Assembly (NCBI RefSeq): GCF_058153355.1
Contig: NZ_CM177019.1
Strand: one strand, 5' to 3'
DNA: 64,000 bases
Positions 39-733 of the stretch are shown here, in pieces (the first letter of the stretch is position 1; each line of letters starts with the position of its first letter). A program made the translations under genes and the position numbers. The notes under the pieces are model-generated. The model did no database searches, had not been told where the DNA came from, and was given only the letters and a program-made list of their open reading frames with translations.

Positions 39-668
39 ATGAAGCATGAAGAAATGAATCAGCGATTCAATCACCTGGAAAATGAAATCACTGAGCTTAA
101 TAAAAAATTGTCGGCGTTGGTGAGTTCTGAAGATGAAAACAAACGCCGCGATGAGCATTATGCGGCGATTTACGATTACTGCCACAAAGTCGCTCACGAG
201 ACTTTTATGAAGTTTTTGCAGGAAAAGTTTTTACCGGCCGCATTGTCAGAAAAAGAGGCGGCTTACCTGCGGCCTGAGTACGTCATTACGGTTAACAGTG
301 CCGGAGAGGAAGAGCATAAAAGTGATTTTATTGCGTCTGCACCGGATAAAGACCAGGAACCCCGTCGGCCTTTCAGGGTTTCCTGTGAAGAGGGTGAGTT
401 CGTCGTTTATGAGAACGGAAAACCTGTCCGGGCATCGCATCATCACTGCCTGAAAATTATTAATCTCGCTATCAGATGCCTGAAAGACGAAAACACCAGA
501 GTTATGAAACGCATTGGCCGTTGCATGGGGTATTTGCAGGTGGCGGCAGAGATTGAAGCACTTGCCAGTGGTGCAGACATGGATGCTGCGGTGCGGGAGG
601 CTCTTCTTCGTGATTTCAATACTCCCCCTTTAAGAAAGAGCCTGATGACTGGATCCAGCCGGGGCTGA
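39..668 (+). CDS. hypothetical prophage protein, 209 aa
   Basis: ATG at 39 with purine-rich stretch upstream; no family recognised; lies immediately upstream of the endolysin where a holin is usually found. Confidence 0.4.
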   Translation: MKHEEMNQRFNHLENEITELNKKLSALVSSEDENKRRDEHYAAIYDYCHKVAHETFMKFLQEKFLPAALSEKEAAYLRPEYVITVNSAGEEEHKSDFIASAPDKDQEPRRPFRVSCEEGEFVVYENGKPVRASHHHCLKIINLAIRCLKDENTRVMKRIGRCMGYLQVAAEIEALASGADMDAAVREALLRDFNTPPLRKSLMTGSSRG

Positions 669-733
669 CTTATCTTAAAAGGCGTATATAAGTTGGCTCG
701 TTATTTGTTGCCGATAAATCCTGATAAATATCC

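Follow-up and report, generated by a model that had tools for sequence, protein, structure and literature searches.

A frameshifted accessory gene related to the C-terminal part of 'YdfR family' proteins lies between the holin and endolysin genes of a lambdoid prophage

The gene preceding the SAR-type endolysin gene in the window, the 64,000-nt stretch of contig NZ_CM177019.1 (GCF_058153355.1) analyzed here, encodes a 209-aa member of the phage protein family phrog_1085 that consists of the coiled coil and the C-terminal domain to which other family members join a DUF1327/YdfR domain. A first-pass annotation had noted this protein at a place where a holin would be expected. The holin gene ends at base 35 and is truncated by the start of the window, so that the apparent lack of a holin is a window-edge artefact and the cassette is an ordinary lambdoid one of the pinholin/SAR-endolysin/spanin type (Table 1). 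We consider an ordinary lysis cassette with an accessory 209-aa gene of the proposed identity a probable explanation of the locus as a whole, and the copy in the window is decaying.

The first 35 bases of the window already code for the C-terminus of a class II holin (...EDKRKAARGE followed by the stop), which leaves no vacant holin position for the 209-aa gene to occupy. Window positions 1-1300 are matched at 99.0-99.5% identity by five complete E. coli genomes, among them the one that contains locus L003. In L003 a complete 71-codon class II holin gene (WP_000839570.1, 71 aa, 216 nt; MKSMDK...KIREDKRKAARGE) ends at the equivalent of window position 35; its last 35 nt are those of window positions 1-35, and 3 nt separate its stop codon from the ATG of the 209-aa ORF. 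The L003 holin (MKSMDKISTG...YFKIREDKRKAARGE) has a Met1/Met4 dual start (MKSM), which we take to be that of the phage 21 S21 pinholin/antiholin pair. The suggestion of a holin upstream of the window is thereby borne out. The statement that positions 1-733 hold no small membrane ORF is also confirmed, since no credible one was found there on either strand; a hydrophobic antisense stretch at about positions 3-230, opposite the holin 3' end and the start of the 209-aa ORF, is a stop-to-stop segment with no complete ORF. Upstream of the holin gene in L003, four tRNA genes (Ile, Arg, Thr and Gly; 5217-5527) follow the Q antiterminator gene, as in Stx-type phages.

The 209-aa protein is encoded by an ATG-initiated ORF that stops at position 668 and not at 733, the earlier end coordinate, which is the base preceding the endolysin ATG. 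It was correctly described as soluble-looking: it has no transmembrane segment (highest 19-residue Kyte-Doolittle mean 0.76), no hydrophobic helix and no match to a holin model in Pfam or PHROGs, and its 209 residues compare with about 65-110 aa for holins, which have one to three transmembrane helices (two in class II) and a charged cytoplasmic C-terminus. As a holin substitute it was therefore rejected, being soluble and too long, with the C-terminus of the true holin encoded just upstream. The downstream endolysin has an Ala/Gly-rich, SAR-like N-terminal helix with a 19-residue Kyte-Doolittle mean of 1.78. The flanks resemble the S21-R21-Rz cassette of phage 21 and DLP12 in having a 71-aa dual-start class II holin, a SAR-like endolysin and Rz/Rz1; in DLP12, however, the holin and lysozyme genes abut, whereas in the window a 630-nt gene is interposed.

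The 3-nt spacing from the holin stop and the Shine-Dalgarno-like element inside the holin gene fit translational coupling, and the 209-aa ORF is probably coupled to the holin in this way; the spacing is likewise 3-4 nt in four further loci (L001, L002, L004 and L009). A consensus scan of the plus strand from the holin gene to the end of Rz detected no promoter-like or terminator-like site. Given this lack of a promoter or terminator of its own and its start 3 nt behind the holin stop, the gene is internal to the late lysis transcript. Directly before the endolysin ATG, at positions 701-733, stands CCGATAAATCCTGATAAATATCC, which contains a duplicated GATAAAT but nothing that clearly resembles a Shine-Dalgarno sequence. 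The window, E. coli GB089 and a Stx2a phage have this sequence unchanged, irrespective of the presence of the partner gene described below, and it may act as a conserved element in the translation or regulation of the endolysin gene.

Table 1. Features of the lysis region of the window, and convergent partner genes in related loci
Feature	Position	Strand	Basis or remark
3' end of pinholin gene, S21-type (class II)	1..35	+	Last 10 codons EDKRKAARGE and stop TAA 33-35
Shine-Dalgarno-like GGGGAGAG	25..32	+	Within holin 3' end, 6 nt ahead of the ATG at 39; read directly
209-aa ORF, phrog_1085 member without DUF1327 N-domain	39..668	+	Corresponds to the coiled coil and C-terminal domain of 'YdfR family' proteins
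N-terminal coiled-coil region, aa 1-64	39..230	+	AF2: two long helices, 3-28 and 37-64, moderate confidence
Conserved C-terminal domain, in-frame part, aa 110-200	366..638	+	pLDDT about 79-94, conservation, tblastn match
C5 run with 1-nt deletion	624..628	+	CC-CCC vs CCACCC/CCGCCC in homologues (DNA alignment)
Ancestral C-terminal tail, -1 frame	614..691	+	..PFKKEPDDWIQPGLTYLKRRI, stop TAA 689-691
Stub of partner gene (phrog_1853)	701..712	-	Stop and last three codons (GNK)
SAR-type endolysin, 177 aa	734..1267	+	PF00959 (Phage_lysozyme) E 1e-24; phrog_7; hydrophobic N-terminal helix
Rz i-spanin	1264..1731	+	PF03245 E 3e-29
Rz1 o-spanin, embedded in Rz	1484..1690	+	PF06085 E 2e-21
Partner gene in L001	3681-3995	-	
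Partner gene in L004	3189-3545	-	
Partner gene in L007	4807-5124	-	
Partner gene in L009	2993-3307	-	
Partner gene in L092	5412-5735	-	
Partner gene in L094	820-1137	-	

The 209-aa ORF evolves as a coding sequence under purifying selection (dN/dS 0.32-0.33 against two homologues). The earlier verdict that its product belongs to no recognised family stands for Pfam, NCBIfam and PADLOC, searches of which returned coiled-coil noise or nothing, and falls with PHROGs, in which residues 1-209 match positions 117-288 of the 296-position phrog_1085 profile (E 3.9e-74, 250.7 bits). The protein is thus matched over its whole length, whereas the profile is not: the positions before 117 correspond to an N-domain that the protein does not have, and the last ones, which hold the conserved C-terminal tail, have been lost through a frameshift. 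A search of 5.8 billion clustered proteins retrieved 132 homologues, all from E. coli or Shigella, which comprise stand-alone forms of 185-222 aa and proteins of 259-333 aa annotated as 'YdfR family' or 'DUF1327 domain-containing'. The long proteins carry PF07041 at the N-terminus, and the 209-aa protein aligns after it (E down to 4e-100), being homologous to their C-terminal two-thirds at 43-82% identity. PF07041 itself gives no match in the 209-aa protein even at E <= 1, whereas the long relative P0091 scores 138 bits against this model, the gathering score of which is 25 bits. The module in the window is therefore a fusion partner of the DUF1327 domain and not a member of that domain family.

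When 1.84 billion cluster representatives were scanned exhaustively with an HMM, no more than 41 clusters were recovered, and hence no informative distant relative among those representatives. The more distant members are prophage proteins of Salmonella enterica and a few proteins from unidentified enterobacterial assemblies; most of them have a diverged N-domain that is homologous to DUF1327 (hhalign probability 88.6%, E 2.7e-6; Pfam E 0.0044). The phrog_1085 family is a phage family restricted to Enterobacteriaceae, and comparison of its members points to an ancestral architecture in which the DUF1327/YdfR domain comes first, then a variable linker that includes a coiled coil, and last a conserved C-terminal domain of about 105 aa. 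All three parts are present in gp05 of Stx2 phage 86, the N-domain alone in K-12 YdfR, mEp460 and PhiR49_2, the N-domain with the coil in the PhiR12 phages, and the coil with the C-terminal domain in the window. The coiled coil recurs as a separate module in the DUF1327-plus-coil proteins (phrog_2091; PhiR12 phages).

A confident AF2 model was obtained from a 90-sequence alignment that included Salmonella and distant relatives, with the tail repaired; a first model, built from a shallow set of 28 E. coli sequences, had a mean pLDDT of 47 and was discarded. In the confident model residues 72-109 are disordered, and residues of about 110-217 form an alpha/beta domain with a small three-stranded sheet and four helices (pLDDT 79-94), whose in-frame part in the window includes the GRCMGYLQVAAEIEA helix. 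No Pfam model covers this C-terminal domain, and no relative of it was found by a sequence-profile search of the PDB (best E 0.25), a search of BFVD (best E 0.024) or Foldseek against the PDB (best E 0.24). The profile and structure searches that the first-pass annotation had recommended accordingly yielded a family, phrog_1085, and no fold match.

That annotation also took it as normal for a SAR endolysin gene to follow a pinholin gene directly. In this phage group that does not hold, since all 80 related IMG/VR loci examined have a family gene between the two: an S21-like holin lies upstream in every one and an endolysin downstream in 79, the remaining contig being cut. Twenty of the 80 carry the partner gene and six the DUF1327 domain. 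The slot is the one occupied by ydfR in the K-12 Qin prophage (essQ-ydfR-rrrQ) and by genes for the long forms, which likewise stand between an S21-type holin and an endolysin gene. It contains a 104-aa YdfR alone in mEp460 and the N-domain alone in PhiR49_2, and is empty in K-12 DLP12, in which essD and rrrD abut; the family is therefore dispensable for an S21-type cassette. In Salmonella and more distant relatives the family gene is found outside the cassette, between the Q antiterminator gene and the holin gene, and adjoins unrelated holins (PF16080, PF16931 with PF05449, or PF05106) and GH19-like as well as PF00959 endolysins. The family is not tied to one holin or endolysin type. Within the Q-dependent late operon the 209-aa gene is thus optional and accessory, and its position there suits expression together with the lysis proteins.

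Many relatives have a convergent gene of about 105 codons (phrog_1853) directly 3' of the family gene on the opposite strand, abutting or overlapping its 3' end, from E. coli to Salmonella and distant enterobacterial prophages; the partner is present in five of the seven non-E. coli loci examined. The partner family is small, with only 44 clusters from E. coli and Salmonella, all annotated as hypothetical, with locus tags consecutive with those of the main family, and phrog_1853 has no Pfam match. In 48 of the 80 viral loci an intact-tailed family gene stands without the partner, with at least two different deletion junctions, and the partner is on that account dispensable.

The window copy is itself in decay, with its tail replaced, its partner deleted and its prophage without head genes. 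The 1-nt deletion in the C5 run shifts the reading frame, so that the ORF ends at 668 with LRKSLMTGSSRG. The family tail, PPFK..P..W..PG..YLK.R, is nearly invariant in the 90-sequence alignment, and the lost part includes nearly invariant P, F, K, P, W, P, G, Y, L and R residues; in the window it is still legible in the -1 frame, as FKKEPDDWIQPGLTYLKRRI, as far as the TAA at 689-691. About 425 bp of the partner gene is gone, between CCGATAA-like microhomologies. The frameshift is common to all 12 near-identical viral-contig copies, and an identical 209-aa protein is already deposited in public databases (WP_001300760.1; UniRef A0A376FLC1, 'Phage protein') and occurs on 379 contigs from E. coli O28ac and Shigella flexneri, on which the frameshifted allele may be tolerated or still partly active. 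Because the conserved tail is lost, we regard the chances of the window allele being non-functional or functional as roughly balanced. The deletion also brings a slippery heptamer, C_CCU_UUA (DNA C_CCT_TTA; X_XXY_YYZ), into register at 626-632. A -1 ribosomal slip there would bring the conserved tail back at the cost of a single F-to-L change, and some distant relatives have L at this position; since no stable stimulatory structure was found downstream of the heptamer (z = -0.59), we assign programmed frameshifting a low probability.

Window positions 1-1966 are 99.95% identical to one viral contig (L013) and diverge from it beyond that point. In the region 1773-2260, just downstream of Rz, a gene for a DUF4406 (nucleoside 2-deoxyribosyltransferase-like) protein (1773-2099) has been cut short by a junction at 1966/1967, of mosaic or deletion origin, and matches only positions 1-65 of the 91 in the Pfam model; at the same place after Rz the L003 prophage has ParDE and KilA-N genes. 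DUF4406 is a recurrent neighbor, its gene lying directly upstream of family members in two distant prophages (L005, 3639-4004; L093, 4522-4911). Past the junction follow an FII-like head-tail gene (PF13856), Z, U, the tail tube gene V with a Big_2 domain, G, T and the tape measure gene. The arrangement of the two genes for tail assembly chaperones, G at 4034..4438 and T at 4447..4776, is lambda-like; the G-T protein of lambda arises by programmed -1 frameshift. No terminase, portal or capsid genes occur between Rz and the tail genes, and on this ground the prophage appears defective.

As to function, we tentatively propose that the protein would be a soluble cytoplasmic adaptor expressed late in infection, with the coiled coil serving oligomerization and the C-terminal domain binding a target, and that its pathway would most likely be host RNA decay or late-transcript handling, not membrane permeabilization. 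This pathway is favored because relatives fuse the YdfR domain, which binds RNase E, to the same module. All functional data on the family come from one 2026 study (PMC13232886), in which two-hybrid and pull-down experiments showed K-12 YdfR to interact with the N-terminal, catalytic half of RNase E (Rne 1-597/1-598). Residues 1-72 of YdfR suffice for this interaction and the protein co-purifies with RNA, whereas overproducing it has little effect on the transcriptome and none on growth. K-12 YdfR (103 aa) is the DUF1327 domain only, whereas the window protein is without that domain, so that the RNase E and RNA binding map to exactly the part that the 209-aa protein does not have; we accordingly hold the adaptor proposal to be possible but doubtful, and domain fusion, the one link that extends the RNase E connection to the C-terminal module, is a weak one. 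PDB, BFVD and Foldseek searches gave no sequence or fold similarity that would assign an activity to the C-terminal domain. A bolder version, in which the C-terminal domain and phrog_1853 form an undescribed two-gene module that reprograms RNase E-dependent RNA decay or lysis timing at lysis, seems to us rather unlikely; such a module may stand first in the late operon of lambdoid phages of enterobacteria, whatever their holin and endolysin types.

The constant placement of the gene beside lysis genes could instead mean a lysis-related role, and the main rival to the adaptor proposal is a cytoplasmic regulator of lysis timing. Such a regulator would attach to the holin on its cytoplasmic side, or to some other component of the lysis machinery, and make triggering later or sharper. 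Holin antagonists that are likewise soluble are encoded beside holin genes in other phages: T4 RIII and P1 LydB are small to medium-sized cytoplasmic proteins that are encoded with the lysis genes and are non-essential for lysis. The late operon, beside the lysis genes, is the constant location of the gene; in the E. coli loci examined it begins 3-4 nt behind the holin gene, all 80 IMG/VR loci have an S21-like holin upstream, and the soluble protein is mildly acidic, in contrast to the strongly basic C-terminal tail of S21. An antiholin would nevertheless be expected to keep to one holin family, and this family occurs beside holins of at least four unrelated Pfam types (PF04971, PF16080, PF16931 with PF05449, and PF05106) and with both PF00959 and GH19-like endolysins; in the Salmonella and more distant loci the gene is upstream of the holin gene, with other genes between. 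S21-type cassettes also exist without the gene (DLP12) or with the N-domain only (mEp460, PhiR49_2), and no similarity of the protein to any solved protein was found, nor is there any in sequence or fold to RIII or LydB. A role in lysis timing is on balance unlikely, and the two readings that follow are less likely.

The first-pass annotation had offered a moron in the lysis region, and the gene is indeed optional cargo: its fixed slot is polymorphic for presence, absence and domain shuffling, and other morons (tRNAs, HicAB, ParDE) cluster nearby in relatives. What would make it an autonomous moron is missing, since it has neither promoter nor terminator of its own, its ATG follows the holin stop by 3 nt, and its GC content (0.44-0.51 across the gene) is like that of the adjoining lysis genes (0.46-0.52). 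PADLOC returned no match and reads of K-12 ydfR are nearly absent under standard growth (PMC13232886), so a lysogenic-conversion function in which the prophage-expressed protein benefits the host, for example by superinfection exclusion or defence, is highly improbable. Just as remote is a toxin/antidote-like pair, in which the late protein would be harmful and the oppositely transcribed phrog_1853 product would neutralize its leaky expression in the lysogen. The conservation of the convergent pair from E. coli to Salmonella and distant enterobacterial prophages, the tiny size of the partner family and its consecutive locus tags would suit such a pair, but the 48 viral loci with an intact-tailed gene and no partner, arising at two or more junctions, rule it out as the main explanation; moreover, neither protein resembles a known toxin or antitoxin, and the YdfR N-domain protein is overproduced without a growth defect (PMC13232886). 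The adaptor acting in RNA decay or late-transcript handling thus stays our preferred, if tentative, proposal.

The essQ-ydfR-rrrQ type of architecture is already known, the exact protein is in databases, and the family is catalogued but uncharacterized. Apart from the RNase E study (2026, PMC13232886), no ydfR paper among those listed appeared relevant, DUF1327 is mentioned in passing in one paper, and a paper on Stx-flanking regions makes no mention of the gene. The literature searched has nothing on the second conserved domain of 'YdfR family' proteins, on its want of a fold relative or on its conserved convergent partner. For the locus itself the result matters little, the missing holin being a window-edge effect and the cassette standard. 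Concealed under the name 'YdfR family' is a second conserved domain, without a model in curated libraries or a structural relative, which is accompanied by a small convergent partner gene in prophages of E. coli, Salmonella and other enterobacteria. This is a modest piece of phage dark matter, for the study of which an intact family member is better suited than the frameshifted, partnerless copy in a defective prophage, and it is relevant to the RNase E link and to the variable slot between the holin and endolysin genes in lambdoid phages, Stx phages included.
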